64,000 nucleotides of DNA, taken from a virus (Duplodnaviria > Heunggongvirae > Uroviricota > Caudoviricetes). How positions within the stretch are numbered: position 1 is the stretch's first letter; every line of letters begins with the position of its first letter. A model generated the notes under the pieces. That model made no database searches, had not been told where the DNA came from, and saw only the letters and a list, made by a program, of their open reading frames with translations. The position numbers and the translations under genes are program-made. The stretch covers positions 3,040 to 67,039 of IMG/VR virus record IMGVR_UViG_2711768037_000005; one strand, written 5' to 3'. Shown here piece by piece: positions 4,626-54,392 of the stretch.

Positions 4626-4700
4626 CAAGCGCCGCCAAAATAAGTAGATGGTTACTTATCTTTCTGTAAGAATACTTTCATCTGTTAGCTAGGAGTTGGT

Positions 4701-5483
4701 ATGAAAGACGAAATTCAGAAATTAGCCTGCGACATCATTGATAAAACTGGTTTAGAAATCAGCGAGAGCAATCGGCTAGACATCATTGAAAAAGCCGTCA
4801 ATACGGCAATGGATCATATCGCCACTCGTTTGGTCGAGATCCCGCTACCGGGGCTACCTTATCTGAAGGTTAAGTTGTGCGTATGGGGCGAACCTGCACA
4901 TGCACGACGTTCTGCATTAGTTGTTTTTGTACGCAAAGAAAACTTACGAACTCTAAAAGTGCAGGTTGGGGCGTGGTTTGATGGCAGAGTCATCTATACA
5001 GATACCATTATCTGTCCTCCAGGTGACGAACATATTGAAGCCGTCATTCGAGAATCAATTCGAGCTATGCGCAGTTTAGCTTTGCTGGAAGACAAGCAAA
5101 ACTTTGAAGATTACTTGCTGTCGGTAAAAGCTGAACCAACATTGTCTCTGAAAGCCGATTTCGTAACTCCGACAAACCTGTTGGATGTTTTGATTAATAA
5201 AGGTGCTAGTGATGCCGTAAATGTAATCAGGGAGAGCGAATATTCGACTCTTTGCGACATGTGCAGAAGTCAGTTGGATCTTGTGCATATCGTTGTTGAT
5301 GCGGGGAAGGCATGTGATGGAGTAATAGCGGAATTTGCTGGGAAGATGGTCAGGATTGCTAACGAATTACCGATGATAGAGCAAGAGGCTAAATCATACG
5401 CCACCAATCATGTCACAGAGCTTCTTGCCCCCTATCGCTTAGAAAGCGATCAGCGCAAGATGATTAGCTGGGGAAGTTGGTAA
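4701..5483 (+). CDS. hypothetical protein
   Basis: 260 aa ORF, RBS GGAG upstream. Confidence 0.5.
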   Translation: MKDEIQKLACDIIDKTGLEISESNRLDIIEKAVNTAMDHIATRLVEIPLPGLPYLKVKLCVWGEPAHARRSALVVFVRKENLRTLKVQVGAWFDGRVIYTDTIICPPGDEHIEAVIRESIRAMRSLALLEDKQNFEDYLLSVKAEPTLSLKADFVTPTNLLDVLINKGASDAVNVIRESEYSTLCDMCRSQLDLVHIVVDAGKACDGVIAEFAGKMVRIANELPMIEQEAKSYATNHVTELLAPYRLESDQRKMISWGSW

Positions 5484-5550
5484 GCTCTCTGTGTGTCGTT
5501 TTTTACGCAAATAATGATAGGTAAGCACAAGATTATTTCTGGCGGTAATT

Positions 5551-6021
5551 GTGAAAGCTGATTTGTCAAAAATCCCTTCTATTTCAGGAAATAACGGTTA
5601 TTCACTTCGTTGTGAGGAAGTAAAGATAAACGGTGAGTCGGCATATTGCAGCTATTCCGTTTGCCAGCACACCATTCTTGCCTTCAAAGAAAACCGTCTT
5701 CCTCGAACTTCTTTCCAGTCGTGCGCAACCGCTATTAAAGCAGGCAAATGCAAGGCGTTAAAAATGATGGTTGAAGAGATTCGTAAAGGAGAATCTCTGT
5801 ATTTCGAAGATATGACCGCACTCATTAAGGAGGTTGAAGAACGGAATAAACAAGCCAGAACTATAAAACGAAAACGTGACAGTGTAACGATTAATGACAT
5901 GGTTAAGAAGAGCGCCACATCACAAACAACGATCACTGACGTGTATGCGGCGTTGCTTGAAGAAACAACAAAAGAAACACATGAGCAAATCGATCAACAT
6001 ATGGAGGCAAAACAACAATGA
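5551..6021 (+). CDS. hypothetical protein
   Basis: 156 aa ORF; stop overlaps start of ligase gene. Confidence 0.45.
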   Translation: MKADLSKIPSISGNNGYSLRCEEVKINGESAYCSYSVCQHTILAFKENRLPRTSFQSCATAIKAGKCKALKMMVEEIRKGESLYFEDMTALIKEVEERNKQARTIKRKRDSVTINDMVKKSATSQTTITDVYAALLEETTKETHEQIDQHMEAKQQ

Positions 6022-7340
6022 AAAAGTTGATCGCACTTAAGCATAAGCTGGACGAAATGAAAGCTATGGGAACCAATGCAAAAAAAGAGGCATTGGCCAA
6101 CATGGATGACTTTGAACAAAGCATGGTTTCATTGATGCTCAACCCTTTCATCCGTTTTGGGGTAAAGAAATACAAAGTGGCAGAGCCGCTTAGTGAGTCC
6201 GTCCCAAGTGACGAAAAAGCCATTGATATACTGAATAAGCTGGCCTCTCGCGAGCTGACGGGGAACGCAGCAATAGCAGCTGTTGAGTCTATCGTGGCGT
6301 CAATGTGCGCCGATGGGCAGGACGTGTTCCGTCGTTTCCTCTTAAAAGACCCGAAAGCAGGTGTTGGGATTAGCCTATGCAACAAGGTTTTTGAAAATCC
6401 CATTCCGAAATTCGAGGTGCAGCTGGCGTCACCGTATAAAGAAAAAGGCGACAAATACCCCTTCAAGCCAAATGCTAAAGCAAAATGGCCGATGATTGGC
6501 AGTCTTAAGCTCGATGGTTTGCGAGTAATTTGCGAGGTTATTGTTGACGAGGAAGAGGTTAACTTCCTTTCTCGTACTGGTAATCCAATCACGTCTCTCG
6601 ATCACCTAAAGCCAGCCATGCTCGAATTAGGCAAACTTTCAGGCCACAAACACATCTTCTTCGATGGTGAAGGAACTGCCGGTTCATTTAACCAGTCCGT
6701 ATCTGCATTGCGCAAAAAGAACGTGCAGGCAATTGGCGCTATTTATCATGTTTTCGACTTCTTCCTACCGGAATGGCGAGCACAGGCTAAATCCAAAGAG
6801 TATGCAAAGACAGGTATGAAGCTGAAAGAGCGCCTGGCTATGCTGGTGGCGTTGTTCAAAAACGATCGCAGTGAAGGCTACACACAAGACATTCACCTGC
6901 ATCCGTTCTATATCATCCATAGCCACGAAGACTTCATCGAACGCTTCATGAAACGCCTGGACGATAACGAAGAAGGGGAGATGGGCAAAGATCCGAACTC
7001 TGTTTACGAGTTTAAACGTACCCGCAGCTGGTGGAAGTTAAAAGACGAAGATTCAGAAGATGGTGAAATTATCGACTTTGAGCCGGGCGATCCGGACTCT
7101 GGTTTTGCCAACACGCTTGGAAAAATTGTTATTCGTCTTGAAAACGGCGTCATCGTTCGTGCGAGCGGTATTAAGCATAAATATCTGGACGAGATCTGGA
7201 ACAACAAAGAGAAGTACCGTGGTCGTATTGTTGAGGTTCATTGTCACGAGAAAACACCGGATGGCAGCTTACGCCACCCACGACTGAAATGGCCGCGTTG
7301 CTTACGCGATACAGAAGATCGAATCGGAGATAAAGAATGA
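6018..7340 (+). CDS. DNA ligase (ATP-dependent type, by size)
   Basis: 440 aa; adenylation motif GSLKLDGLRV (KxDG); size fits phage ATP-dependent ligases rather than ~670 aa NAD-dependent LigA. Confidence 0.65.
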   Translation: MKKLIALKHKLDEMKAMGTNAKKEALANMDDFEQSMVSLMLNPFIRFGVKKYKVAEPLSESVPSDEKAIDILNKLASRELTGNAAIAAVESIVASMCADGQDVFRRFLLKDPKAGVGISLCNKVFENPIPKFEVQLASPYKEKGDKYPFKPNAKAKWPMIGSLKLDGLRVICEVIVDEEEVNFLSRTGNPITSLDHLKPAMLELGKLSGHKHIFFDGEGTAGSFNQSVSALRKKNVQAIGAIYHVFDFFLPEWRAQAKSKEYAKTGMKLKERLAMLVALFKNDRSEGYTQDIHLHPFYIIHSHEDFIERFMKRLDDNEEGEMGKDPNSVYEFKRTRSWWKLKDEDSEDGEIIDFEPGDPDSGFANTLGKIVIRLENGVIVRASGIKHKYLDEIWNNKEKYRGRIVEVHCHEKTPDGSLRHPRLKWPRCLRDTEDRIGDKE

Positions 7341-7517
7341 TGCTCGGCTGGATGATTGCATTTTTAGCAGTTGGTTTTTTCATAGGTATTGTGGTGATGT
7401 CCAGTTGCATCAATGACTACATTAAAAGCGGTGTTATAGAAAGACGCGGTCGTATTTATCGCATTGTAGAAATAACCAACACCCTGAAGGAGATTAAGGA
7501 TGATCGTATTAAGTAAA
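7338..7517 (+). CDS. small membrane protein (59 aa)
   Basis: ATGA overlap with ligase stop; N-terminal hydrophobic helix MMLGWMIAFLAVGFFIGIVVM; C-terminal motif GRIYRIVEIT shared with neighbouring small ORFs; below the 60-aa ORF-track cutoff. Confidence 0.4.
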
Positions 7518-8151: not shown

Positions 8152-8918
8152 AAACATATCGATAAGTGTTTACTTACTTATCCTTTGTGTATAAGATGAC
8201 TTTGTTTTCGTTGAGACGCGACTGTTTGAACTTAAATACAAGTGCAAACGAAGAAGTCTATCTGGCAGTAGCCTAATAAGCCAAACACCAGCGAGGTCAG
8301 TTTCCAGCCTCGTTACCGAAATGGGACACACTGAGCGAGTGTGATTGCAGAACGCAGGAGGGAACATGAGTGTTCCCTCCGATGAAGTAACAAAATGGGC
8401 GGTCGGTATATTTTCAACTCCATATGACTCCCGGATTCTTAGCCACTGACCGCCCATTCTGTTACGTCATTTTGTTCAATTATGTCGTTTATACTGGGTT
8501 AAAAAGCGGCGACGTAGCCCGGCTGGTATGGTTAGCCAGCACACAACGTTGAGGCCATTACATTTTTATCAATTCTAAGGTTCTATTCACAGAGATACCG
8601 GCGAGCGTTGATATGTAACATGTTGGGCAAACATTTAATCGGAGTAGTGGCCTCAACATTGTGAAGACGGGATTGTTGTGTAGGTTTAACCACTGTTGCC
8701 TGTTTTCACAACAAATGATTCCATACATCACATTGTATAAATTACAAAGTAGGTGCTGTCCTCAGAAACATCATCTACTTAAAGATTTAGCCTTCTATTG
8801 AGCGAAGTCGAAAGCGTCTGGCACTAACGAAAAGTGCAAGTAGCGGTGCGTTTCCTGGCAGAAACTAACACCGCCGCGATTAGCACTGTTGAGTAATAAA
8901 TACTGTCAGTGCTGAATT

Positions 8919-8993
8919 GATGGTGTAGCTCAGCGGTAGAGCAGTTGGCTGTTAACCAACTGGTCGGTGGTTCGAATCCACCCACCATCGCCA
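8919..8993 (+). tRNA. tRNA-Asn (anticodon GTT)
   Basis: cloverleaf traced by hand: acceptor GATGGTG/CACCATC, D-arm GCTC-AGCGGTA-GAGC, anticodon arm GTTGG-CTGTTAA-CCAAC, T-arm GGTGG-TTCGAAT-CCACC, encoded CCA. Confidence 0.85.
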
Positions 8994-8998
8994 ATTTA

Positions 8999-9085
8999 GG
9001 GGAGTTAGTCCGTAGAGGTAGCGGTGTAGACTGTAAATCTACTGTCATGGCGACTCGGGTGGTTCGACTCCATCACTCCCCACCA
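8999..9085 (+). tRNA. tRNA-Tyr (anticodon GTA), long variable arm
   Basis: acceptor GGGGAGT/ACTCCCC; anticodon arm GTAGA-CTGTAAA-TCTAC; long variable arm; T-arm GGTGG-TTCGACT-CCATC; encoded CCA; D-arm atypical. Confidence 0.7.
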
Positions 9086-9089
9086 AATT

Positions 9090-9165
9090 GCCGGTTTAGC
9101 TCAGTTGGTAGAGCGGCTGCCTTGTAAGCAGGATGTCAGCGGTTCGAGTCCGTTAACCGGCACCA
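9090..9165 (+). tRNA. tRNA-Thr (anticodon TGT)
   Basis: acceptor GCCGGTT/AACCGGC; D-arm GCTC-AGTTGGTA-GAGC; anticodon loop CTTGTAA; T-arm AGCGG-TTCGAGT-CCGTT; encoded CCA; one mismatch at the base of the anticodon stem. Confidence 0.75.
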
Positions 9166-9656
9166 ACATAATATTGAGAACATTGGCGTAACGGGTTCAT
9201 ATCCCAATTTATGAATAAATGTTGCGTTGCCGCGTGACAACCAGTGTTCTCAACATTGTGGTGAATGCACAGGCTGATGTGCCGCAACTACAGTAGTGCG
9301 CGCTTTGCGGGGCTTGCTACAACCCTGTGTCGGAGATCAGCGCCGACCATCACAATTTGGCTCTCTTGCAACAGCATAACGCTGAAATATGTCCAATCTG
9401 GTGCGGCCTGTTCACCCGCCGTTAGCTCCACGAAACGGAGCGCACAACAGGAAAGAGCATTGAGAACCGCCGACTGCCCTGTTTGAAGCGTAAGTCCGTG
9501 CAAACGTCATACAGTGCTCTTTTCGTTGTGGTTGATGCGCAGACTGATGCGCGGAAAGAAATGCCCCAGCGACACACGAGGCGAGTTCACACACTGCATT
9601 GCAGTCAGTAGCCGGGGTCGCTAAGCCGGAGATCAGTACCGGTAACCACAACAATT

Positions 9657-9743
9657 GGAGAGTAGGGAGCATGGTGCTCAAGCGGTCTTGAAAGCCGTCC
9701 CATTGCGCAAGCGATGATGGTTCGATTCCATTACTCTCCGCCA
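9657..9743 (+). tRNA. tRNA-Ser-like (anticodon TGA), type II with long variable arm
   Basis: acceptor GGAGAGT/ACTCTCC; anticodon arm GCGGT-CTTGAAA-GCCGT (two G-U pairs); T-arm GATGG-TTCGATT-CCATT; encoded CCA; D-arm short and atypical, so could be degenerate. Confidence 0.55.
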
Positions 9744-9744
9744 G

Positions 9745-21831: not shown

Positions 21832-21948
21832 TTTTTGATAGATAATAAGTAAGTACTGATCTATCATTTAACAACTCAAAAGAGCCACGAATGAACGAAA
21901 GCCCAACGCGCATAGCGCCATCGGCCAAATCACAACAAGGAGAAACAC

Positions 21949-25328: not shown

Positions 25329-25354
25329 AAGGCGTCCATAGGACGCCTTTTTTA
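25329..25354 (+). terminator. rho-independent terminator
   Basis: AAGGCGTCC-ATA-GGACGCCTT followed by TTTTTAT. Confidence 0.65.
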
Positions 25355-25416
25355 TCTCTTGAAAATATATAAGCACTTACTTATTATTTTCGCATAACAA
25401 CCACATAGGAAAACAC

Positions 25417-29388: not shown

Positions 29389-29603
29389 GTTTACAGTAAA
29401 ATTTATATAAGTTAGTATCTACCTATCATGAAGATTTTTATTGAATACTTGTTGCTCATCGTATCAATAGCTTTTGTCATCGACTGCATTTTCACTGGTG
29501 TCATTCGTAAAGTCTTTTCCCCGGTGAACGACGTAGTCATAAACGCTTTGGCTATCGTGCTCGTATTTAATTCAGCATTTGATGTAATCAAAGAGGTGGC
29601 AGC

Positions 29604-30151: not shown

Positions 30152-30198
30152 ATGCAAACTGACTGCGGCACGTTCCGCAGTCATATTTCATAGTCGTC

Positions 30199-30731
30199 AC
30201 CGCTGACAGCATACACAATCAACTGCCGCTGATAGCATATCGAGAGTCTATCTCACCGCTCACAGCATACTTTACTCGATTTTTTACCGCTGACAGCATA
30301 CTTAAGACATTGCATGAATAATGTGTACCGGTATGGGTATAACCAGAACAAAATTACCGCTGGCAGCATACGAAGGTCTGACATATGCCATTAATTACCG
30401 CTGATAGCATATCCAAACAAAAATTCCTCAATAAAACACCGCTGACAGCATACGTTCTATCAGGGAGCAGCAGGCAATAAATGCCTTTCACTACAAGCAA
30501 TCAGCGCAATAGCAATAGAATGTTAGTGAGCGCAAACCTATATGGAATGCACTCTTCGAGGTTAGTAACCACTGGGGAGGTATGACAGAGCATTGAGTGG
30601 TGATAGATGATTTACCGCTCACAGCATACGTTCATCTCACTATACCGCTGGTAGCATATCTTTAACCGTTCACAGCATACATTTCAGAAAAATAGCCGCT
30701 GATAGCATACATTTCACCGCTGACAGCATAT
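30199..30731. repeat. downstream iteron array (12 copies of 16-bp ACCGCTGACAGCATAC-type repeat in two groups); incA-like copy-control locus
   Basis: copies counted by eye at about 30199, 30225, 30255, 30286, 30356, 30397, 30438, 30614, 30644, 30665, 30695, 30716; variants CTGATAGCATAT, CTCACAGCATAC; ~160-bp spacer between the groups. Confidence 0.85.
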
Positions 30732-31825
30732 CAAAGCAGTTTGAGACTATTGGAAAGGATCTCAATCATCTTGATATTTTCAGGCGTCAAATTCTGCGAA
30801 AGTTCAGTTATCTTGTTGATAATGTTCTGTTTAGCATCAATTTCCCCGGCTTTCTCATCTGGTTTTTTGGGTTCGATGTCTTCAGGTTTTGGCGGTGCGA
30901 CTTTAAGTTTTGGATTACGGCTGTGAATCTGGATATAGATCGACCGCCCTCGCTTAATCTCGCTGTATTCGAGATAGCCCAAATCTTGGAGAGCTTTTAA
31001 GCCGTTACGTATAGTCTGATTCTGCGAGCTTACATTCCTGCTACTCAAATTGAGTCGCGCACGCAATCGAGCAAGCGATACCGGCGCAGGCTTGGTTGGA
31101 AGACTTTCGATGAAGGTGTACAGAGCCTGTGCTGTTTCTTTGCGTGGTAGCTTATTGATAACCTTTAACTGCAAAAGAACCTTATGGTCAAAGCGATATA
31201 GTTCGGCCAGCTTCGGTTCTGCATAGAACACCACCGTATCTTTCTGCTCGTTGTAGTCCACGCTATTGATGAGGTGCACCATCAGAAGCGAGATCTTGTT
31301 AGAGCCGTCGACGTTCTTTTCTTCATACGTTCTCTGGAAAGACAGAGTTGTACGCATGATCTTCAAAAGACTGTTTGTAAGCCGGTCGCGGAGTGTTTTG
31401 CGGATCTGTGACGATGGATAGCCACAAAACTTCGCAAATTTCGTGATGCTTAACTCGACACGACCATTAGGTTCGCCGTATTCTGCCAGCGAACGCACAA
31501 CGCCCACCCACGTTTTGAAATCATGATCCATGTCCAGGCGAGGACCGGTTATCTTGATATCGGAATAGCCTTCAGAACGGGCTACTTCGAGCTGGACAAG
31601 CTCCTTTGAAGCATCGATCTCATTTGGCTTGTTACGTTTACTGTATTTTGTTCCCTTAAGCGTGGGGACGAACAACCCCAGTCGCATCAACGCAATTGGT
31701 TGGACTGTATTGTTGCTATTAGGGACAAGTTCCCCTGTGTACAATTCAAGGGAACCTTCTTCAAAGTTGTCGATGTTATCTTCTACTTCTTTGTTATTTT
31801 TACCTTTTTTATTTTTTGTGGACAT
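30731..31825 (-). CDS. repA: RepFIB/P1 RepA-family iteron-binding replication initiator
   Basis: blocks NSNNTVQPIALMRLGLFVP, ITGPRLDMDHDFKTWVGVV, AQALYTFIESLPTKPAPVSLARLRARLNLSS, GYLEYSEIKRGRS match RepFIB RepA as remembered; start placed at internal Met (MSTKNKKG) because the longer ORF to 31945 runs through the upstream iterons; RBS AAAGG 7 nt upstream. Confidence 0.85.
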   Translation of the reverse strand: MSTKNKKGKNNKEVEDNIDNFEEGSLELYTGELVPNSNNTVQPIALMRLGLFVPTLKGTKYSKRNKPNEIDASKELVQLEVARSEGYSDIKITGPRLDMDHDFKTWVGVVRSLAEYGEPNGRVELSITKFAKFCGYPSSQIRKTLRDRLTNSLLKIMRTTLSFQRTYEEKNVDGSNKISLLMVHLINSVDYNEQKDTVVFYAEPKLAELYRFDHKVLLQLKVINKLPRKETAQALYTFIESLPTKPAPVSLARLRARLNLSSRNVSSQNQTIRNGLKALQDLGYLEYSEIKRGRSIYIQIHSRNPKLKVAPPKPEDIEPKKPDEKAGEIDAKQNIINKITELSQNLTPENIKMIEILSNSLKLL

Positions 31826-31844
31826 GTGGACACCTTTGTCATTC

Positions 31845-31947
31845 AACCGCTGACAGCATACTTGATTTGCCGCTGACAGAATACCAAAAACAGTTGGCAG
31901 CATACGGTGAACCGCTGACAGACTATCAATTACCGCTGACAGCATAC
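31845..31947. repeat. upstream iteron array (4-5 copies of the same 16-bp repeat); origin-proximal (incC-like)
   Basis: copies at about 31845, 31869, 31911, 31931 plus one partial copy. Confidence 0.8.
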
Positions 31948-32791: not shown

Positions 32792-33045
32792 CCCTCCAGA
32801 TCGTATATTGGCGTAGATAGAATCTACGCCCCCTCAAAATAGCTCTCATAGCGTTCTACAGTGATCCTGTCTTATTTTTAGTCATACAGACAAGCAAAGT
32901 TGCGCCACGATAAATAGGTATATACTTACTTATAAATTTTGTATATTAAGGCGCTCGTTTCATTCCTAACATACCGTTATGCATAGTTGTTTACCTCCTC
33001 ATTGCTCTTAGAATTTGTATCAAAATAAACACAAAGGAAAAATAC

Positions 33046-34131
33046 ATGACTTTGCCATACGGCGTCATTTCTGACTGCCACTACCACAAATGGGATGCGT
33101 TCTCCACGACGAACGCTGAGGGGCTTAACTCCAGACTTGAAATACAGTTGGAAGCAACGAAAGAAGCAGCCATCGCCATGAAGAAGGCCGGTTGTAAGTA
33201 CATGTTGGTTGCCGGTGATACATTTCACGTCCGAGGAACTGTGTCCCCTTCTGTTTTGCATTACGTAACTGAAACGTACAAGTGGATTATCAACGAGCTT
33301 GATCTGACAGTAGTAATGCTGGCCGGTAATCACGATCTTGAAACCAACGATTCAGTATATAGCGCCAACGCAGCAGCATCGCTGAGTTCTATCGGCGTGG
33401 TAATCGTATGTGGCAAGCGCCCACACTCAATAAAAATTGGTGATGTAACTGTCCACCTGATTAGCTGGCGTAACAATCATGCAGAGCTTATCAGCGATCT
33501 GAAAGCATTACGTAAGAGCGTAGAAGGTGATAATCATGACGTTGTTATCCATACATCCATTAACAAAGCCATTCCAACAATGCCTGACGTCGGTATCGAT
33601 GCGCAGGAGTTAAAGGATATCGGCTTTCGTCTCGTGCTTAGTGGGCATTACCACAACCACAAAGAGGTCATTCCTGGAGTTATCAGTGTCGGTGCACTGA
33701 CCCATCAAAATTGGGGAGATGTTGGATCTCTGGCTGGTTACATGATCGTAAACCCGGACGGCAGTTTCAGTCACTACGAAACCAGTGCGCCTAAATTCAT
33801 TAACCTAGAAGATTATGTTGCCGATGACCAAATTCGCGGCAACTACGTGCGTTTCCGCGCCGTAATTGAGAACGATGAAGAAGGCATTAAGTACCAGAAT
33901 ATCCTCAAAACAATGGGCGCAAAAGGTGTCGTGTGCAACTTCATCCGTAAGTCATCAATGATGGAAGGTACAGCAAGCACAACGGAAACCAGCAAAATCG
34001 ATAGCTTGGGAGAGTCGGTATCTGCTTATTGCAAGATTGTCCACGATACTGACGGCGGATTTGATCTGAGCAAGTTGGATATTTTGTGTCAGGAAATCCT
34101 CACCGAAGCGGAGAGTTCGGAGTCTGTGTGA
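33046..34131 (+). CDS. SbcD/Mre11-like DNA repair nuclease (calcineurin-like phosphoesterase; T4 gp47-like)
   Basis: 361 aa; metallophosphatase motifs ISDCHYH, LVAGDTFH, LAGNHD, SGHYHN. Confidence 0.75.
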   Translation: MTLPYGVISDCHYHKWDAFSTTNAEGLNSRLEIQLEATKEAAIAMKKAGCKYMLVAGDTFHVRGTVSPSVLHYVTETYKWIINELDLTVVMLAGNHDLETNDSVYSANAAASLSSIGVVIVCGKRPHSIKIGDVTVHLISWRNNHAELISDLKALRKSVEGDNHDVVIHTSINKAIPTMPDVGIDAQELKDIGFRLVLSGHYHNHKEVIPGVISVGALTHQNWGDVGSLAGYMIVNPDGSFSHYETSAPKFINLEDYVADDQIRGNYVRFRAVIENDEEGIKYQNILKTMGAKGVVCNFIRKSSMMEGTASTTETSKIDSLGESVSAYCKIVHDTDGGFDLSKLDILCQEILTEAESSESV

Positions 34132-37019: not shown

Positions 37020-37589
37020 ATGAGTAAAAAAATCAGCGTAGTTGGTGTTGATCCCTCAATGAGTAACTTTGGGCTTGCTGTGGGCACTTTAGACCTTGAA
37101 ACGGACGAACTTGAGATTCACGGCCTTACTCTTGTTGAGACTAAAGCGGGGAGTAACAAAAAGACAGTTCGTGTGAATAGCGACGATCTGCGCCGTGCCA
37201 GTGAAATATGGCGTGTTGCGAAGCCAATCATTGATAAGGCAAATATGGTTTTTTGTGAGCTACCGGTTGGGAGCCAAAACTCTCGTTCGCAGACGTCTTA
37301 CGGTATTTGTATCGGTGTACTTGCGTGTGTGGATAAGCCATTGATCCAGGTCACTCCAAACGAAATCAAGCATTTTGTTGGCAATAAACTTACTACATCG
37401 AAAGAAGAGATTATCCAGTGGGCTACGAAAAAACACCCTAAAGCACCGTGGCTGCGTCGTAAGCAATCGGGACAGGATGTTCTCGTGAACAAAAACGAAC
37501 ATTTGGCTGATGCGGTGGCTGCCATCCATACCGGTATGCAAACGGATCAGTTCCGCCAGGTGCGCGATGTTCTTAAGTCTCTCATTTGA
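37020..37589 (+). CDS. RuvC-like Holliday junction resolvase (RNase H-fold)
   Basis: 189 aa; N-terminal VVGVDPS, later CELPV and HLADAVAAIH consistent with RuvC-family acidic catalytic residues; sits next to recombination genes. Confidence 0.5.
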   Translation: MSKKISVVGVDPSMSNFGLAVGTLDLETDELEIHGLTLVETKAGSNKKTVRVNSDDLRRASEIWRVAKPIIDKANMVFCELPVGSQNSRSQTSYGICIGVLACVDKPLIQVTPNEIKHFVGNKLTTSKEEIIQWATKKHPKAPWLRRKQSGQDVLVNKNEHLADAVAAIHTGMQTDQFRQVRDVLKSLI

Positions 37590-37624
37590 TTTCATTGATA
37601 GGTAAGTGCTTATCTATTAACATG

Positions 37625-37655
37625 GGCCACTATATTTAGTGGCCCTCTTTATTTG
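37625..37655 (+). terminator. rho-independent terminator
   Basis: GGGCCACTA-TATT-TAGTGGCCC followed by TCTTTATTT. Confidence 0.6.
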
Positions 37656-37662
37656 GTGATAC

Positions 37663-39978
37663 ATGATAAGCATCGTAAAACGTAACGGCCAAACAGAGCC
37701 GTTATCCGAAGAAAAATACAACCGCGTCGTAATGTATGGCGTAGAAGGCATTCGTGGCGTAAGCGCATCCGCTGTAGCAATGGGAGCTGCGACCAGCATT
37801 TTTGATGGGATGACCACCAGCCAGTTGCATGAGGCTTTGGTTAAATCTGCCGCTGATTTGATCTCACCAGAAGCACCAAATTACTCACAGGTGGCTGCCT
37901 GCCTGAACATTTTTAAAATCCGCAAAGATGCCTTCGGTCGTTACGACTATCCGAACTTCTACCAACACATTGTCAAGAACGTTAACAAGGGCGTTTATGA
38001 CAAGGATTTGCTGACACATTATTCGTTTGAAGAGATCGAAGAACTCGGCAATTACATTAAGCCGAAACGTGACGATCTTTTTGGCTATGCAGCTACGGTG
38101 CAGTTGCAAAGCAAATACCTCGTTCAAAACCGTGTTACAGGTGAGATTCATGAGGGGCCGCAACATATCTATATGCTGGTAGGCATGTGTCTGTTCCAGA
38201 ATTGGGAAGACGACTGCGCTGGCAAAACACGTATGGAGATGGTCAAAGGTTTCTATGACGTTACAAGTACGTTCAAACTGTCTCTGCCTACACCAATCAT
38301 GGCCGGCGTCCGTACTCCAACCCGTCAGTTCTCCAGTTGTGTGCTGATTGAGTCTGGCGATAGTCTGAAAGGGATTAGTGCAGCTTCAGCCGCAATTATC
38401 GACTACGTTTCACGTCGTGCTGGAATTGGTATTGGTTTTGGCCGTATCCGTGCGCTGGGCAGCGAGATCCGCAATGGTGAAGCCACCCATACCGGAGTTA
38501 TTCCATTCCTGAAGCATTTCCAGACGGCTGTTAAATCTTGTTCGCAAGGTGGTGTTCGTGGTGGCGCAGCAACAGCGTTTTACCCGATCTGGCATCTTGA
38601 AGTTGAAAGTCTGCTGGTGGTGAAAAATAACCGTGGTATTGATGAAAACCGCGTTCGCCATCTTGATTACGGCGTCATGAGTAACCGTCTAATGTACCGT
38701 CGACTCGTCAGAAGCGAGAACATCACTCTGTTCAGCCCGCATGATGTGCCTGATATGTACGAAGCCTTCTTCACAGACCAGGATCTGTTTGAAAAGCTGT
38801 ACCATAAATACGAAGCCGATGATTCAATTCGCAAGAAGTCAGTACCTGCCATTGAGCTGTTCTCATCTCTGATGCAGGAACGAGCGTCCACGGGCCGAAT
38901 TTATATTGCGAACGTCGATCATATTAATGAGCATGGCGCTTTCATTCCTGCTCTTGCACCTGTCCGCCAGTCAAACCTGTGCATGGAGATCACTCTACCC
39001 ACTCGTCCACTGGCATTTACCGACGACCCGAACGGTGAGATCGCGCTATGCACTTTATCCGCTTTTAACCTCGGAGCCATCCGTTCACTGGAGTCTCTTA
39101 AAGAGGTGGCGTTCTATGCCGTTGCTGCACTGGATTCGTTACTGGATTATCAAGACTATCCGATGGAGGCAGCCGAAGTGCCTGCCAAAGCTCGTCGTAG
39201 CTTGGGAATTGGTGTAACCAACTTTGCTTATTACCTGGCAAAGAATGGCGTTCGTTATTCTGATACCGCTGGCAATAAACTGGTGCATGAAACGTTCGAA
39301 GCTATCCAGTATTACCTTCTTGACGCCAGCTGCCGACTTGCCGAAGCAAAAGGTGAGTGTGACTGGTTTGAGCAGACCAAGTACGCAATTGGTCAGTTGC
39401 CGATCGACCATTACCGTTCTTCATTAGACGAAAGTGGCGAAACCAACTTTGAGTTAAAGATGCCGTGGGAAGAACTGCGTGAACGTATTGCAAAATACGG
39501 CCTTCGCAACTCCACACTGACGGCACAAATGCCATGCGAGACTTCCAGCCAGATCACTAATTCCACCAACGGCATCGAACCGCCTCGTGGCCCGGTGTCA
39601 GTGAAATCTTCTAAGGACGGCATCGTCAAGATGGTCGTGCCTGAGTTTGAAAAACTGAAGGAACAGTATGAATACCTGTGGGATATGCCGGACAACCGCG
39701 GCTATCTGACAAAGGTGGCGATCATCCAGAAGTTCTTTGACCAGGCTATTTCAGCCAATACCAACTATGACCCTTCTCGCTTTGAAGGCGATAAAGTCCC
39801 AATGATGACGCTACTGTCAGATTTGCTTCTCGCCTACAAGATGGGAGTTAAAACGCTTTACTACCACAACACCAGAGATGGGGCAGGAAAGCGTGATGAC
39901 GACGAACCGCAGAATCCACTGACGCAAGCTGTAGCCGTCGAGCCAGAAGATGAGTGCGACGGGGCCTGCAAAATCTGA
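37663..39978 (+). CDS. nrdA: ribonucleoside-diphosphate reductase alpha subunit (class Ia)
   Basis: 771 aa; N-terminal ATP-cone; long collinear blocks match remembered E. coli NrdA (ISLPTPIMAGVRTPTRQFSSCVLIE, GGVRGGAATAFYPIWHLEVESLLV, C-terminal CDGACKI). Confidence 0.95.
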   Translation: MISIVKRNGQTEPLSEEKYNRVVMYGVEGIRGVSASAVAMGAATSIFDGMTTSQLHEALVKSAADLISPEAPNYSQVAACLNIFKIRKDAFGRYDYPNFYQHIVKNVNKGVYDKDLLTHYSFEEIEELGNYIKPKRDDLFGYAATVQLQSKYLVQNRVTGEIHEGPQHIYMLVGMCLFQNWEDDCAGKTRMEMVKGFYDVTSTFKLSLPTPIMAGVRTPTRQFSSCVLIESGDSLKGISAASAAIIDYVSRRAGIGIGFGRIRALGSEIRNGEATHTGVIPFLKHFQTAVKSCSQGGVRGGAATAFYPIWHLEVESLLVVKNNRGIDENRVRHLDYGVMSNRLMYRRLVRSENITLFSPHDVPDMYEAFFTDQDLFEKLYHKYEADDSIRKKSVPAIELFSSLMQERASTGRIYIANVDHINEHGAFIPALAPVRQSNLCMEITLPTRPLAFTDDPNGEIALCTLSAFNLGAIRSLESLKEVAFYAVAALDSLLDYQDYPMEAAEVPAKARRSLGIGVTNFAYYLAKNGVRYSDTAGNKLVHETFEAIQYYLLDASCRLAEAKGECDWFEQTKYAIGQLPIDHYRSSLDESGETNFELKMPWEELRERIAKYGLRNSTLTAQMPCETSSQITNSTNGIEPPRGPVSVKSSKDGIVKMVVPEFEKLKEQYEYLWDMPDNRGYLTKVAIIQKFFDQAISANTNYDPSRFEGDKVPMMTLLSDLLLAYKMGVKTLYYHNTRDGAGKRDDDEPQNPLTQAVAVEPEDECDGACKI

Positions 39979-42267: not shown

Positions 42268-42342
42268 CTATCTGGCCTTGTTCCCTCAATAAATGTAAAC
42301 TCACGCAATGAATAAGTGGTTACTTATCTTTGTGAGGTTTTT

Positions 42343-45459: not shown

Positions 45460-45468
45460 GGAGTTCTG

Positions 45469-47115: not shown

Positions 47116-47163
47116 GATTGCCATACATAAAATCAAATGCAAAAATAGGTAATCACTTACCTA

Positions 47164-47769
47164 TTGATAAAGAAGATGATTGCAGCCGAAAAAATCAAAA
47201 AGCGAAAGCGCGACAACTCTCTTCGTGACCTCTGGAGAACACCTGACTGGCTGTTTAATGCCATTCAACGTTATCTGGGAGTGACATTTGATGTTGACGT
47301 TGCCTGCAATAAGGACAATGCAAAGCTGCCTATTTTCATAGGCGTTGAGCGCGATGCTTTGAAATCTGAATGGGGGCAGCCAGGTACAATTGCCTTCCTC
47401 AATCCACCCTACTCCAAAATTTCCCCCTGGATTGATGCGGCTATACGTGAGCAGGCTCGCGGAGTTACAACAGTGATGCTAATTCCTCAATCCCTCGATA
47501 CAAAGTGGTATGAGCGTGCAACAGAGTGTGCGAATGAGACGATTATTCTGTCTGGTGGCCGCGTAGCGTTTGTCGAGCCTGACGTCAATCTGGGTCAGGT
47601 AGAAGTAAACATCAACCCCGGTGGCAGTATGCTCGTTGTTTTTCGCGGATTCTGTCAGGACGCTGGGCACTCTATAAGCAAGATCCCTTTGGACGTCATG
47701 AAAAGTCTGGGAGGGTATGATCCTGCGAATGTGATCAGGAAAAAAAGACCATCAAAGAAGGCAGCTTAG
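47164..47769 (+). CDS. dam: phage-type DNA N6-adenine methyltransferase (Dam-like)
   Basis: 201 aa; catalytic NPPYS motif (FLNPPYSKISPW) with WRTPDW motif upstream; typical small phage Dam. Confidence 0.75.
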   Translation: MIKKMIAAEKIKKRKRDNSLRDLWRTPDWLFNAIQRYLGVTFDVDVACNKDNAKLPIFIGVERDALKSEWGQPGTIAFLNPPYSKISPWIDAAIREQARGVTTVMLIPQSLDTKWYERATECANETIILSGGRVAFVEPDVNLGQVEVNINPGGSMLVVFRGFCQDAGHSISKIPLDVMKSLGGYDPANVIRKKRPSKKAA

Positions 47770-47791
47770 TTTGTTCTGGCGTCTGTAATTA

Positions 47792-47847
47792 GCCTGCTTC
47801 TGTATATAAATAACTACATATTAATTATTAATATACGGAAGCAGGCT
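47792..47847. repeat. 56-bp imperfect palindrome, copy 2 (GCCTGCTTCTGTATATAAATAA / TTATTAATATACGGAAGCAGGC); terminator-like
   Basis: arms read directly; followed by TGTTTTGTATC; related to element at 1070-1120. Confidence 0.6.
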
Positions 47848-47953
47848 GTTTTGTATCAGAGACTCCAGACCTGAACATCACTACAGAATCCACTAGAACC
47901 CCTTCCCAGACGCTTTAAAATCGATTTTATGAACCACTTTAAGGAAAACTAAC

Positions 47954-48184
47954 ATGCCATACCCGACCAATGTTGTTGCGCTCGTAGAGAGCGATTTTCT
48001 GGCTAAGGCTCGTGAAATGATGAAAGATCGCGAGCAGGCTTTCAACTTGTACGAATGGGCAATTAAGTGCTTGCATCTTGGGGAGCATCGCGAACTTGTT
48101 GAACAGCTTTTAGGTGAGTTGATCAACGAGGTGTTTGCCTTGAATGTTCAACTACATGGTCGAGAAAATAATCAATCGAAATGA
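47954..48184 (+). CDS. hypothetical small protein
   Basis: 76 aa ORF with RBS AAGGAAA. Confidence 0.4.
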   Translation: MPYPTNVVALVESDFLAKAREMMKDREQAFNLYEWAIKCLHLGEHRELVEQLLGELINEVFALNVQLHGRENNQSK

Positions 48185-48703
48185 TAGATAAGTACAAACT
48201 ATTCATAAGATAAATTGTAAGTGCTAAGATCTGATAGTTTCCAGTCGTAGACTGGAGACTCGACCTGATGGGTGGGGGTAAGCGTCACTGGCGTCAGGTT
48301 TAAAAAAGCTCACTACCAGCGTAGAACCGGTGCCGTTTAGGTGTCGGGAAAGGGGGAACCAAAGTGAGCGGAGACAAGGGTCACTTTATGATTGTCGAGT
48401 CTGGGGTGTTTCGAGAGGTTGAATCCAGTACTCCCCTTCATAAAGTGTGGGAAGATCTCGGTTCTGGGGTGCTGTCATCCATAACTTCCCAAGTCTAAGC
48501 TGGCAGTAGACTTAGACCATAACTTTTCAGGTTATGAAACGACCAGGTTGGTGAGAGATTTTTATACTCACCTCCCTGGGAGAGTATTACCTGAAAAGAC
48601 AACCTCTCACTTCGTTCGAGGTGAACTTCACTCACTTCGTTCGTTCAGTTCAGGTTTATAAAAACCTGTTCTGGGAAGTAATTTGTTTATTTTAATAATT
48701 ATT

Positions 48704-48728
48704 AACACGCACGCGTGTGCGCACGCGC
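48704..48728. other. 25-bp alternating pyrimidine-purine tract (ACACGCACGCGTGTGCGCACGCGCG), Z-DNA-prone, in rnhA upstream region
   Basis: strict Py-Pu alternation read directly; GC-rich; partly palindromic around ACGCGT. Confidence 0.6.
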
Positions 48729-48768: not shown

Positions 48769-49359
48769 ATGACGACGAAGACACCAGCCCGATCGCAAGC
48801 AAAAACTCGCAAAAAAGCCAAAAACAAAAATTCTCCCCGCACCAATCCCACAACGCCTGTCGTAGAGTTCAATCCCCAGCTGAAAACCGTGAAAATCTTC
48901 AGTGATGGCTCTTGCCTTAAAAATCCGGGTGGCCCGGGCGGTTACGGTATCGTTCTTCAGTATCGTGGAGAGGAACGCGAGTTCTCAGATGGTTTTCATA
49001 GCACCACCAATAACCGCATGGAGATGATGGGGGCACTTATCGGGCTGGAGCGTTTGAAATATCCATGCAACGTTATTTTGCACTCTGATAGCCAGTATCT
49101 GAAAAACGGCATGACACAGTGGATGAAATGGTGGAAACGCAATGGATGGATGACTTCTGACAAAAAACCGGTAAAGAATGTTGATCTGTGGAAGCGTCTG
49201 GATGAGGCCGCAAGTCGACATAATGTTCGCTGGAAGTGGGTTAAAGGTCACGCCGGGCATCGTGAAAATGAAATATGTGATCGACTCGCGAAGATCGCAG
49301 CTTTTTCAGCAGCAGATATGCCTCACAAGAAAGATATTGGTTTTGTTTATAACAAGTAG
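48769..49359 (+). CDS. rnhA: ribonuclease HI
   Basis: core [26 protein letters not shown]...[16 protein letters not shown]...[15 protein letters not shown]...[20 protein letters not shown] collinear with E. coli RNase HI; basic N-terminal extension; start at ATG 48769 with RBS AGGAG (ORF track extends to 48715). Confidence 0.85.
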
Positions 49360-49507
49360 TAAGTAAGTGTTTACTCATCACTTTAAATCATGTATCTTAT
49401 CGGCGTCAGGATGACAATGTGTCGGTAAGACACAGTTCCAGGATGGAACAAGAAAGGCGGCTGGCAATCGCCAGCCGCAACTCTTTCTGACACTGGATGG
49501 GGTCCAT

Positions 49508-50878: not shown

Positions 50879-50879
50879 G

Positions 50880-51586: not shown

Positions 51587-51640
51587 TCTGATATGGCCGC
51601 ATGATCGGCCATATTATGTTGATAAAAACAAGGATGAAAA

Positions 51641-51922
51641 ATGGCATACGGTACAGGGATCTACAATAATAAGGGAGTTAACGTTACTGGCTTCCTTACT
51701 CCTATTTTTTTTCTTGATCGATTTACAACCACGTCAGGCTCTAAGACTTACCCAAATCCACCACCTGGCAAATCATTACATGCCGTGTGCTCATTGATGC
51801 CTTTAAATAACGATAACCATGTAAATATACCTACACCAACTATCAATATTAACGGCAATACAGTCAGTTGGTCAAATTTATACAAGGGACTTGGATCTTA
51901 TATATATACATATTGGGGATAA
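51641..51922 (+). CDS. hypothetical protein (AT-rich island)
   Basis: 93 aa ORF; strongly AT-rich codon usage unlike neighbours. Confidence 0.4.
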   Translation: MAYGTGIYNNKGVNVTGFLTPIFFLDRFTTTSGSKTYPNPPPGKSLHAVCSLMPLNNDNHVNIPTPTININGNTVSWSNLYKGLGSYIYTYWG

Positions 51923-51928
51923 CAATAA

Positions 51929-52542
51929 TGTTCGGGATGTCAATTACTCAGTCAAATGGTAATGTGTGGATGAGTCCAGAATTTACACCGCAAAATTTGA
52001 TTAATAGGGGGACAATGTCCACGTCTAAAGGTTCTGTTTTTAAGACTTCAATACCGTCAAACAAATCATGTTTTTTCTTTATAAAAAGCAGTAATAAGGC
52101 GAATATGATGTTCGTTCATGAATTTAGAGATGGGTATAATGCTCTCAGACTGAATCAGGTTGGAGGAAACCCCGGAACGATAACAGTTTATGCTTTTTCT
52201 GATATGGTGTTACCACATTCAGGATATGGTATTGCCATGTATAATCGTGCAGGTGAAATGGTATATCACGGTGAGATGATGCCTCTTGATGCAGAGATTA
52301 TCACTATTACAAATCCTCAATTTACCATAAATATGGGATACCCGTGTGCGATAATGCCTGCAATGGTTGGAGTATATAACTACAGACGAACACCTTACGA
52401 CAGACCTGTATACGTAACAATGACAGGCGCAACGGGAAACCAAATATATAATGGTGAATGGTATTCAAGTAATGTTACATGGGATGTAAAAAAACTATAT
52501 ACAAATAAAGTCCTGGTTATAAATACATCCAAGTATGATTAG
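51929..52542 (+). CDS. hypothetical protein (AT-rich island)
   Basis: start set at ATG 51929 just after previous stop with RBS GGGGA (ORF track extends to 51868); Asn/Tyr/Thr/Gly-rich, beta-rich composition. Confidence 0.45.
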
Positions 52543-52645
52543 TCAATGCCTTTATTTTAAGTATTGCCTGTTAATTTCTATTTAGCACCTTTTTATTTTT
52601 GAAATAATTGCATCATTAAACAAATCATTTCTTAATGGTGCAATT

Positions 52646-54331
52646 ATGAATACAGCCCTTTCCATCATGGACGATGCCAGCTCAAACACTGCTATCGACT
52701 ATCGACAGGAAATGAACGTCATCCACGAAATTGTGGCCGAGTGCGAGAAAGAGATCTCCTTCATGTATCAGGTACACGACTTCGTTTATGGCGATGAACG
52801 CCACAACATGATTAATCGCCTGCTTCGACTAAACCACCGACCAGATGAAGATCGCTCACGTTTGAATCGAGTCTGGCTGGATAACGTCGATCTGGAATGG
52901 GTGAAACAGAATATTTGGGCCGAGTACTGGAGGAAGGTCACGGACATGACTAACGTTTTGCTGATCATGCCAGCTTCCCGTCGAGATGAGTGGCGCGAGC
53001 AGTTTATAGAGGGCAAACAGGAAGTCACCAAAACTGACAGAACAGGCTACCAGATGAAGGTTAAAGAGTTCGTTGGTGTACCGGAGTTCAAAGCAGAAAC
53101 GGTCATACCCACGATGCTTAATTTGCTGAATGACAGGCACAAATATCTCTCTGAGCGCGTGTATGGCTTGTTTAAGGCGCTGAGTCCTGCGCACAAGACA
53201 AATAAGACAAACGGTTTCAGCGAGCGGCTGATAATCGCTGACTGCATTTCTGATTTCTGGCGGGACAGCGTTAGCGTGAACTATCGCAAAGAGGACTACA
53301 TCGACGATCTGCGTGTCTTGCTTCATTTCTTCGCGCACAAAGAATTTATTACCATCAACCGCACTGCTGAGGTGTTATCAGCTGCGTATCGGGCAAACGA
53401 CTGCCAGACCGGTGACTGGATGAACGTCGATGGAAATCTGATGCGCGTGAAGATGTTCAAGAACGGCAACGTTCACTTTGAAATACATCCTGACGTGGCT
53501 TGGAAGTTGAATGAGGTGCTGGCTTACAGTATGCCTGCTGCAATCCCCGCGCCATGCCGAACTGCGCCAAAAACACGGGCACCAAAGCAGTTCGGGTTAA
53601 TCCAGAAGACGATCTCCGTGCCGGTTCGCACTGCGCTTCGTGACGGGCGATTAAGCAAAGACAAAGGCGTATGGTACTTCTCTGATTCAGCTCTCCAGAA
53701 GTCGCAGATGGAAGAGCTTGAGCGCACACTGAGCTTCATTGGCGGCGTGCAGGAGAAAAAGCACTGGCAGTTCCCGTATGAGATCGACCATACGCTAAAT
53801 ACGATTGTGGCTACCGGTTTAATACCGGATACAAAATCACACCAGTTCTACCCTACCCCACGCTTGATTGCTGAGTACGTTGCCAGAGCCACTGAATTGA
53901 AGCCTGGTGAGAAGCTGCTTGAGCCTCACGCCGGACGTGGGGATCTTCTGGCCTATATTAACGCCGATCTGGAAGATGTTACCTGTATAGAAATCGCACC
54001 TCTCTTCGCTGATATCCTGCGTGGAAAAGGGTATACGAACACGATTTGCTGCGACTTCATAAAGTGGTCTGAGGACAACGCAGGTTATCAGTTCGACAAA
54101 ATCGTTATGAACCCGCCGTACTCGCTTGGTCGTCATAGAGTGCACACACTGGCTGCGCTGGGGCATCTGAAAGTCGGCGGGCGTCTTGTAGCAGTATTGC
54201 CGGGCACTGCGCCAATACTGGACTGGATGACGATGGATAATTACGTTTATGCCAGAGGGAAGTCGTTTACCAACGAGTTTGAAGACACAGGGATCACAGT
54301 CAGCGTATACGTTTTCAAACGCGTTAAATAA
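52646..54331 (+). CDS. DNA methyltransferase-like protein: N-terminal ~430-aa unknown domain + C-terminal N6-adenine MTase-like catalytic domain
   Basis: C-terminal motifs in order FYPTP (motif X-like), LLEPHAGRGDL (SAM-binding motif I-like), IVMNPPYSLG (motif IV). Confidence 0.5.
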   Translation: MNTALSIMDDASSNTAIDYRQEMNVIHEIVAECEKEISFMYQVHDFVYGDERHNMINRLLRLNHRPDEDRSRLNRVWLDNVDLEWVKQNIWAEYWRKVTDMTNVLLIMPASRRDEWREQFIEGKQEVTKTDRTGYQMKVKEFVGVPEFKAETVIPTMLNLLNDRHKYLSERVYGLFKALSPAHKTNKTNGFSERLIIADCISDFWRDSVSVNYRKEDYIDDLRVLLHFFAHKEFITINRTAEVLSAAYRANDCQTGDWMNVDGNLMRVKMFKNGNVHFEIHPDVAWKLNEVLAYSMPAAIPAPCRTAPKTRAPKQFGLIQKTISVPVRTALRDGRLSKDKGVWYFSDSALQKSQMEELERTLSFIGGVQEKKHWQFPYEIDHTLNTIVATGLIPDTKSHQFYPTPRLIAEYVARATELKPGEKLLEPHAGRGDLLAYINADLEDVTCIEIAPLFADILRGKGYTNTICCDFIKWSEDNAGYQFDKIVMNPPYSLGRHRVHTLAALGHLKVGGRLVAVLPGTAPILDWMTMDNYVYARGKSFTNEFEDTGITVSVYVFKRVK

Positions 54332-54392
54332 TAGGTAAATACTTACCTAATTTGTGTAAGAATGTAGTTACTAAACGATAAGAGAAAAACAC

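Follow-up and report, generated by a model that had tools for sequence, protein, structure and literature searches.

A dispersed 20-bp dyad of SSU5/pHCM2-type phage-plasmids and its probable role as an operator of an XRE-like repressor

The 64,000-nucleotide stretch of DNA analyzed here (designated as the window; positions 3,040 to 67,039 of IMG/VR record IMGVR_UViG_2711768037_000005) is part of an SSU5/pHCM2-type phage-plasmid, because its identity is 98% to Escherichia phages CMS-2020a and PhiR41_1, 95% to Cyrano (the pLF82 plasmid), and 80% to Salmonella phage SSU5. Elements of the SSU5/pHCM2/pKpn/pMT1 type rank with the most frequent phage-plasmids of clinical Escherichia, Klebsiella, Salmonella, and Yersinia, and resistance genes may be carried on them (PMC7969092, PMC9600943); SSU5 itself was isolated as a phage and is in use in phage cocktails (PMC7969092). 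The window encodes parA, replication and nucleotide-metabolism genes, a plasmid repA with iterons, and accessory genes, and nearly every gene lies on the + strand. An earlier note, made from the window alone, described an inverted repeat in at least ten intergenic regions, with ten examples, and read it either as an operator for one dimeric regulator or as an element-specific promoter class. Our literature search found no repressor, operator, or promoter described for SSU5-type elements, one heteroresistance preprint mentioning promoters there not being covered. In this study we define the repeat, here called the dyad, map it in the window and in related genomes, and argue that it is probably a dispersed operator through which the element's XRE-like repressor would keep most lytic genes silent in the plasmid state.

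The recurring motif is one fixed-register 20-bp palindrome, ATAGGTAAGT·ACTTACCTAT (the dot marks the center). In a logo of 62 sites its symmetry reaches approximately 26 bp, A-W-R-ATAGGTAAGT·ACTTACCTAT-Y-W-T, with the central GT·AC included. All ten intergenic places described earlier match this palindrome in one register (starts at 4640, 8162, 16262, 21845, 25365, 37598, 42308, 47145, 48184, and 54331), and the fixed-register consensus scan added sites at 1206, 5517, 13603, 29407, 32914, and 49359. The literal pattern TAAGT-N2-10-ACTTA has only four matches in the window and was dropped as a motif definition in favor of that scan. Likewise, the variable spacer of 4 to 8 nt proposed in the earlier note did not survive: spacing in the true register is fixed, and the apparent spread arises because each half-site holds TAGGT and TAAGT four bases apart.

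The dyad is a strongly non-random, family-specific regulatory DNA site. Scanning of the whole window gave 24 sites scoring at least 14/20 against 1.4 expected and seven scoring at least 16/20 against 0.03 expected. Seventeen of the sites with at least 14/20 are intergenic, against 0.38 expected in simulations based on intergenic composition only, and the intergenic density is 21 times the density in coding sequence (AT content 0.596 and 0.535, respectively); the intergenic enrichment thus holds after correction for AT content, as the earlier note had asked. An unbiased word count placed TAAGTAA at the top of the intergenic-enriched 7-mers. We compared the window with the complete genomes of SSU5, PhiR41_1, and Klebsiella pJN2-26. 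The window-derived consensus is matched at 20/20 twice in pJN2-26 and at 19/20 in SSU5, and each complete genome carries 25–28 sites of at least 14/20, approximately 85% of them intergenic and some in the lysis and structural modules that the window does not include. In IMG/VR (2.9 M contigs), 39 loci hold the exact dyad ATARGTAAGTACTTACYTAT, all SSU5-like, which makes an element-encoded reader likelier than a host factor. A contig search with the single-stranded DNA-binding protein (SSB) returned close relatives only. A site for a host global regulator (LexA, CRP, and similar) was rejected on the same distribution and on the Acinetobacter relatives, which use their own variant.

The way in which the two halves of the dyad vary indicates what is being recognized. 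Among 77 distinct sites, each of the ten mirrored pairs shows as many Watson-Crick combinations as independent columns would predict; at pair 4/17, for example, G-C, A-C, A-T, and G-T occur 18, 17, 13, and 12 times, respectively. No compensatory covariation was detected at the ten pairs in these sites, and G-U is not preferred over A-C. Half-sites that vary independently, with no selection for pairing, argue that the dyad is read as double-stranded DNA by a symmetric protein; judged from this pattern, it is selected as a double-stranded sequence and not as an RNA hairpin.

The dyads of the window are described below from left to right, without strand, and promoter-like elements with theirs. 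The dyad at 1206–1225 (15/20, left half 9/10) lies 3 nt upstream of the open reading frame (ORF) 1229–1978, which precedes dnaB-like and primase genes; its orthologs are at 75254 in PhiR41_1, 33600 in SSU5, and 74983 in pJN2-26. The dyad at 4640–4659 (14/20), which begins 14 nt past the primase stop codon, is conserved in four genomes, unlike its upstream flank. It is followed by the extended -10-like element TGTAAGAAT (4665–4673, + strand), whose hexamer begins 8 nt past the dyad, so that the dyad spans approximately -40 to -21. This TGTAAnAAT is kept in the window, PhiR41_1, SSU5, and pJN2-26, and the sequence beyond it diverges. A weak dyad or half-site at 5517–5536 (14/20, left half 9/10) lies upstream of ORF 5551–6021, with an SSU5 ortholog at 39087. 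The dyad at 8162–8181 (15/20) is located upstream of a non-coding and tRNA unit; the -10-like element TATAAGAT (8190–8197, + strand) follows, and a conserved non-coding RNA-like block starts just downstream. The minus-strand ORF 8170–8457 that overlaps this dyad is probably spurious. The dyad at 13603–13622 (15/20) is 27 nt upstream of the start codon of the XRE-like gene and overlaps a predicted minus-strand promoter, TTTACA(13648–13643)-16-TAATAT(13626–13621), and would be an autoregulatory operator of this gene. The weak half-site ATAGATAAGT at 13750–13769 (left half 9/10), with TATAAGAT directly after it, would belong to the rightward side of a divergent switch region before ORF 13824–14036.

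Further along, the dyad at 16262–16281 (14/20) separates cobT-like and cobS/MoxR-like genes, and that at 21845–21864 (17/20) lies 84 nt upstream of a gp32-like SSB gene. The latter is conserved in Escherichia, Salmonella, Klebsiella, Kluyvera, Buttiauxella, and Yersinia, and a 5' leader strongly conserved in these six genera starts approximately 12 nt past it, which suggests a transcription start just downstream of the dyad. The dyad at 25365–25384 (16/20) coincides with the spacer and first three -10 bases of a sigma-70-like promoter, TTGAAA-17-TATTAT (25359–25387, + strand), just after a terminator at 25329–25349. The dyad at 29407–29426 (16/20) abuts a small ORF for a membrane protein at its start codon (29428). 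Upstream of the sbcD-like gene (33046–34131), the dyad at 32914–32933 (17/20) is followed by a conserved TG-extended -10, TGtATATTA in the window and TGyCATAAT in SSU5 and pJN2-26. The dyad at 37598–37617 (18/20) lies 8 nt past a stop codon and directly before an intrinsic terminator (37624–37645), nrdA starting at 37663. The dyad at 42308–42327 (14/20) precedes a thyA-like gene, with a conserved block, CTTyGTGAGGTT, downstream. At 47118–47164 (+ strand) a promoter TTGCCA-17-(TGc)AAAAAT is joined to the dyad at 47145–47164 (18/20): the end of its -10 and the beginning of the dyad overlap by two bases, which would place the dyad at approximately -8 to +12, and a methylase ATG follows 11 nt past it. 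The -35 and the TG-extended -10 of this promoter are conserved in four genomes. The site at 48184–48203 (14/20) is a half-site in the window (left half 9/10) with which a 588-bp non-coding region begins, and its SSU5 ortholog is a full dyad (17/20). The dyad at 49359–49378 (14/20; 16–18/20 in relatives) overlaps the stop codon of an RNase H-like gene, and that at 54331–54350 (18/20) overlaps the stop codon of a 561-aa methyltransferase-like gene; after the latter, TGTAAGAAT recurs at 54355–54363 (+ strand), its hexamer again 8 nt past the dyad, before ORF 54393–55097, and appears in the four genomes as TTTRTGTARGAAT.

The trailing motif TTTGTGTAAGAAT that the earlier note had attached to the dyads is real and is confined to about four loci (4665–4673 and 54355–54363, with variants at 8190–8197 and 42328). 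The palindrome at 1070–1120, which had been regarded as akin to the dyad, turned out to be a different element. It is a 51-bp hairpin (-26.8 kcal/mol, z -8.6), and a paralogous hairpin at 47790–47850 (-32.2 kcal/mol, z -7.5) has the same outer arms, CCTGYTTCYGTATAT...ATATACGGAAGCAGG, and does not share the TAAGT core. Each follows a gene end and precedes a U-run; they are probably strong terminators and not dyad sites, and that at 47790–47850, between convergent genes, may be bidirectional.

The relationship of the dyad to promoters separates the two readings offered by the earlier note. Dyad positions 18–23 read TATYAT, which resembles a -10 element, and this edge is mirrored equally on the other strand (30 vs 33 of 62 sites), while a -35-like hexamer abuts the dyad at two loci only. 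We rejected the right-hand TATYAT as a general promoter -10 on these grounds and because some start codons lie too close to it. In orthologous intergenic regions of the four genomes, the dyad and one nearby -10-type element are conserved and the rest has diverged. The offset of this -10 differs by locus, with the dyad at approximately -40 to -21, -29 to -10, or -8 to +12. TGTAAnAAT lies 8 nt downstream of the dyads at 4640 and 54331, and similar TG-extended elements accompany those at 32914 and 8162; at 25365 and at a site inside the portal gene, TTGAAA-dyad-TATnAT makes the dyad the spacer; and at 47145 the conserved TTGCCA-17-TGnAAAAAT is immediately upstream. Altogether, conserved -10 or extended -10 elements, sometimes with a -35, overlap or adjoin the dyads at 4640, 8162, 25365, 32914, 47145, and 54331 and the one in the XRE promoter, and none is evident at 37598 and 29407. 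Dyads that lie near or over -10 elements without a fixed geometry make an operator pattern, as seen with the C1 operators of phage P1, and not a promoter class. The first reading of the earlier note, an operator for one dimeric regulator, is thus supported by the two-fold symmetry, independent half-sites, family specificity, and varied promoter offsets, and the second, an element-specific promoter class, found no support.

Two observations adjoin this analysis. Canonical sigma-70 -35/-10 pairs are rarer than in shuffled sequence (13, 21, and 19 found vs approximately 30 expected per 20 kb), and several of the few on the + strand coincide with dyad sites. The portal-internal dyad, which has a perfect TTGAAA -35-like hexamer, lies outside the window, within the 3' end of the portal gene, and is conserved in PhiR41_1 (49146), SSU5 (3544), and pJN2-26 (42093). 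It probably serves the scaffold and capsid genes as an internal promoter/operator.

The candidate binder is a 128-aa XRE-like helix-turn-helix protein encoded on the minus strand at 13190–13576. It is a homolog of the "putative repressor" CYRAN_45 of Cyrano, which was reported to be expressed in LF82 lysogens (PMC9928086). The XRE-like gene is present in essentially all plasmid-state relatives: its PLSDB counts in Klebsiella, Escherichia, Enterobacter, Yersinia, Salmonella, and Citrobacter (348, 230, 92, 63, 49, and 25, respectively) mirror those of the family's SSB gene (347, 224, 92, 63, 49, and 25). In the lytic isolate SSU5 the gene is missing together with the entire int-XRE block; this block is present in pHCM2, which is 95% identical to SSU5 in the flanking genes, and there a dyad precedes the XRE gene by 29 nt. 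We considered whether the absence from SSU5 rules out the XRE-like protein as a binder and rejected this argument, as SSU5 is the exception to the near-universal presence of the gene. Its loss there is consistent with the role of a lysogeny repressor, SSU5 having been obtained as a phage and put to use in cocktails. A dyad lies upstream of the XRE gene, over its predicted promoter, in all lineages examined, namely the window, pJN2-26 (90499), pHCM2, Klebsiella CP027615, and two Acinetobacter elements, of which CP029570 has three such sites and CP087336 at least two.

The predicted recognition helix of this protein and the dyad co-vary across lineages. With the protein of the window as the reference for identity, the window and pHCM2 (66%) share the helix NANNLSLIKSG and the ATAGGTAAGT-type dyad, which occurs at 15/20 or better at 11 sites in the 64 kb of the window (0.07 expected). 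In pJN2-26 (58–59%), the helix is NPNILSLIKKG and the dyad again of ATAGGTAAGT type (21 such sites in 110 kb, 0.23 expected); in Klebsiella CP027615 (39%), the helix is NANNISLIKSG, with the same dyad type (5 in 40 kb, 0.10 expected). Acinetobacter CP029570 (40%) has the helix RPNVLSMIKSG and the dyad ATCAGTCAGT·ACTGACTGAT (12 in 40 kb, 0.13 expected), and Acinetobacter CP087336 (38%, local tblastn match) has NQNMVSFIVRG and ATTAGTAAGC·GCTTACTAAT (8 in 28 kb, 0.20 expected). The ATAGGTAAGT dyad is therefore shared by lineages with helices NANN(L/I)SLIKSG and NPNILSLIKKG, down to a protein identity of 39%, and in each genome only the variant of its own lineage is enriched. The change from Asn to Arg at the first helix position accompanies a change from A-T to C-G at dyad positions 3 and 7, which is the expected direction in a single contrast. 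The earlier note had named the XRE-like protein as a possible regulator; the dyads in its own promoter, the co-variation, and its occurrence in the plasmid state make it the best candidate, while its binding is a prediction from sequence.

Taken together, we consider it probable that the dyad is a dispersed operator of this protein. A dimeric, element-encoded helix-turn-helix repressor, most likely the XRE-like protein, would bind dyads such as ATAGGTAAGTACTTACCTAT in the plasmid (lysogenic) state and, once bound, would occlude host RNA polymerase, because each dyad would cover part of the region from -40 to +12 of a sigma-70 promoter. The dyad-bearing promoters would rely mainly on a -10 or TG-extended -10, and the site in the repressor gene's own promoter would give autoregulation. 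Approximately 25 transcription units carry dyads, covering replication, nucleotide metabolism, DNA methylases, the tRNA and non-coding region, lysis, and the interior of the structural operon. The identity of the binder, repression upon binding, and the positions of transcription starts are all presumptive here. The protein lacks a recognizable S24 autocleavage domain in a Pfam screen, and induction would thus probably need another route.

Several points weigh against this interpretation. Most dyad sites lack a -35, which is also typical of activator-dependent promoters. Two dyads, at 37598 and downstream of the capsid gene, have a stop codon on one side and an intrinsic terminator on the other, and the dyad at 29407 and one at the SSU5 portal gene abut a start codon, with no promoter evident at any of them; such sites fit no promoter-linked model. 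It is only from geometry that we infer repression at the dyads. SSU5 keeps high-quality dyads without the XRE-like gene, which requires a recent gene loss. The assignment of the XRE-like protein draws on co-occurrence and three lineage contrasts, which any other co-diverging protein of the family would fit equally, and a fully conserved site of 20–26 bp is long for a single XRE dimer. The protein scores 18.9 bits against Pfam HTH_19, below the curated cut-off of 30.2, and reaches phage immunity repressors in a profile search at an E value of approximately 0.06. Its single-sequence structure model has a predicted local distance difference test score (pLDDT) of 74 and was matched by Foldseek to lambda repressor (1lmb) with a probability of 0.99 and a template modeling (TM) score of 0.63, but with all E values above 0.1, so that the modeled fold weakly resembles Cro/CI/XRE-type dimeric operator binders.

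If the dyad is a DNA site that acts positively, it would mark a temporal (middle or late) class of promoters, like the Lpa box of P1, with a dyad-bound phage protein replacing the missing -35 contact and recruiting host RNA polymerase to the nearby -10. The scarcity of -35 elements fits this idea, as do the TG-extended -10 elements that stand at a fairly constant 27–30 nt from the dyad start at about five loci and the spread of dyads over many units, including the interior of the structural operon, which recalls the 11 late promoters of P1 (PMC10695390). Moreover, the P1 "-22 box", AAGT(G/T)ACTT followed by a -10, is nearly the dyad core AAGT·ACTT. We nevertheless regard an activator site as unlikely, because the geometry varies (at 47145 and 25365 a conserved -10 precedes the dyad or coincides with its edge), the dyad is fully symmetric without strand bias, and tblastn found no Lpa homolog. 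In addition, lysogens, whose lytic genes are silent, express the best candidate binder (PMC9928086), and SSU5, which has no gene for it, grows as a lytic phage. The operator could also belong to another element-encoded DNA-binding protein, the XRE-like gene being merely a target. The 25 high-scoring sites that SSU5 keeps without this gene, the many conserved small proteins without a recognizable domain, and the sub-threshold helix-turn-helix assignment would all be accommodated. This is quite improbable given the dyads in the control region of the XRE gene in every lineage examined, the co-variation with the recognition helix, and the near-universal presence of the gene in plasmid-state relatives, its loss being limited to a lytic isolate. 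When approximately 25 conserved small proteins were screened with Pfam and PHROG, an FljA-like protein was the only other conserved regulator to emerge.

That FljA-like protein brings up a role for the dyad in RNA, as a hairpin in polycistronic transcripts that serves in processing or stability or as a translational operator to which this protein would bind. The dyads can indeed be folded into hairpins of 9–10 bp (-7 to -8 kcal/mol, z approximately -3.7), simply because they are palindromes; they follow stop codons, and some abut start codons. The family encodes a strong Flag1_repress/FljA homolog (Pfam, E 3e-81), FljA is reported to act post-transcriptionally by binding the fliC mRNA leader and blocking translation (PMC4122451, PMC2652032), and the verified fliC leader has ATACGTAATC, which matches the half-site at 8 of 10 positions. 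A hairpin function is very improbable all the same: covariation is lacking at the mirrored pairs, A-C being as frequent as G-U; the palindrome continues through the center, although symmetry is not required in a hairpin loop; the match in fliC is marginal, forming a direct and not an inverted repeat, with an estimated chance probability of approximately 0.05; and no dyad lies near the FljA-like gene. An Rfam search for the dyad as a structured RNA element gave no hit. The dyad as an intrinsic terminator was rejected as well, since the stem is A+T-rich without a consistent T-run and true terminators are separate, sometimes 1–11 nt downstream. The FljA-like protein, annotated in the family as a conserved "transcriptional repressor" and encoded outside the window (SSU5 L002:46897–47343 and PhiR41_1 37192–37710, both on the minus strand), is an unlikely reader of the dyad. 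Its target might be host flagellin, silenced as a form of lysogenic conversion, and not the genes of the phage.

Known systems offer partial parallels to an operator of the XRE-like protein. P1 is also a phage-plasmid in which one repressor, C1, has many scattered operators that overlap sigma-70 promoters variably, its own included; the P1 record annotates them at ref, mat, ssb, c4, kilA/repL, lpa, and c1. C1 operators are asymmetric. They are annotated as 17 bp, and C1 is an unrelated protein of 283 aa, whereas here a 20-bp palindrome is paired with a 128-aa XRE-type candidate; furthermore, P1 controls its late genes separately via Lpa, and the dyad is also found inside the structural and lysis modules. 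The Cro/CI proteins of lambdoid phages are small helix-turn-helix proteins of similar predicted fold, with palindromic operators over -35 and -10 elements and a divergent control region that holds the repressor gene. In lambdoid phages a few 17-bp operators serve two or three promoters, in contrast to the approximately 25 genome-wide sites found here, which are 20–26 bp long and composed of four TARGT-like pentamers, and the present candidate has no S24 domain. The Lpa box resembles the dyad as a short palindrome next to a -10 without a -35 at many dispersed phage-plasmid promoters (PMC10695390). It differs in being 9 bp long with a central base, at a fixed 4 bp from a one-sided -10, whereas the dyad is symmetric over 20–26 bp and its 8-bp core has no central base. 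A tblastn search of P1 Lpa against the window, PhiR41_1, SSU5, and pJN2-26 gave a best E value of 1.1 and no homolog. A P1-type Lpa-dependent late promoter was rejected on this result, the mirrored -10-like edge, and the differing -10 offsets, and the resemblance of the cores is probably coincidental or convergent. Middle promoters of phage T4 combine an asymmetric MotA box at -30 with an extended -10 and require sigma appropriation by MotA/AsiA. About five dyad loci share this arrangement (dyad center near -30, a TG-extended -10, and no -35), but the dyad is symmetric, unlike the MotA box, and the other dyad loci do not have such a geometry.

Other features of the window were noted. A second dispersed palindrome, GAAAACAAnTTGTTT / (T/C)AAGAAAACAAnTTGTTT, is present in approximately 20–25 copies per genome, 15–30 nt upstream of start codons (window positions 1991, 26519, 40042, 50258, 50987, 61803, and others, and genome-wide in PhiR41_1 and SSU5). 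It precedes terS (two copies), parA, dnaB, cobT, nrdB, and numerous small accessory genes, a set complementary to that of the dyad, and the two palindromes are almost never found in one intergenic region; the (T/C)AAGAAAACAAnTTGTTT element may represent a second regulon or a 5'-untranslated-region element. The conserved SSB leader (21880–21948, AAGAGCCACGAA...GCGCATAGCGCC...CACAACAAGGAGAAACACATG), highly conserved in the same six genera, may act as a translational operator for autoregulation in the manner of gp32. Four tRNA genes (Asn, Tyr, Thr, and Ser) lie on the + strand at 8919–9743, preceded by approximately 700 nt of non-coding sequence (8198–8918) whose start, TTTGTTTTCGTTGAGACGCGACTGTTTGAAC, is kept in SSU5 and pJN2-26; Rfam gave no match for this block, and the minus-strand ORFs called across 8198–9743 are probably spurious. 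The 588-bp region at 48127–48714, between a minus-strand ORF and the RNase H-like gene, is G+C-rich, ORF-free, structured-looking, and partly conserved in SSU5, with the dyad half-site at its start, and has no match in Rfam. Approximately 11–12 iterons, (A)CCGCTGACAGCATAC, at 30185–30730 flank a 404-aa ORF (30731–31945, minus strand) annotated in PhiR41_1 and pJN2-26 as a replication protein (RepB family), and iterons and ORF together make up the origin module for plasmid replication. A canonical LexA box, CTGTATAGATGAACAG (62046–62061), lies 20 nt upstream of an S24-peptidase (UmuD-like) ORF (62082–62471), which is a predicted SOS-controlled unit; in LF82, ciprofloxacin induces the element.

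The two kinds of action may also be combined, with the dyad as the common element of a genome-wide switch in which one small XRE-type protein acts directly on approximately 25 units, those with dyads within the late structural operon and beside terminators among them, as a repressor in the plasmid state and possibly, at extended -10 promoters, as an activator that substitutes for the -35. We regard this as doubtful; if true, the AAGT·ACTT core held in common with the P1 Lpa box would mean that enterobacterial phage-plasmids solve late transcription in a common or convergent way. As an operator of the XRE-like protein, the dyad supplies a defined operator sequence, a named candidate repressor, a map of approximately 25 controlled units, and two Acinetobacter operator variants. 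The latter would serve as a specificity-swap system for repressor-operator co-evolution and immunity groups. Such a repressor/operator pair would explain the lytic behavior of SSU5, and the control of lysis and lysogeny in this family becomes directly testable.

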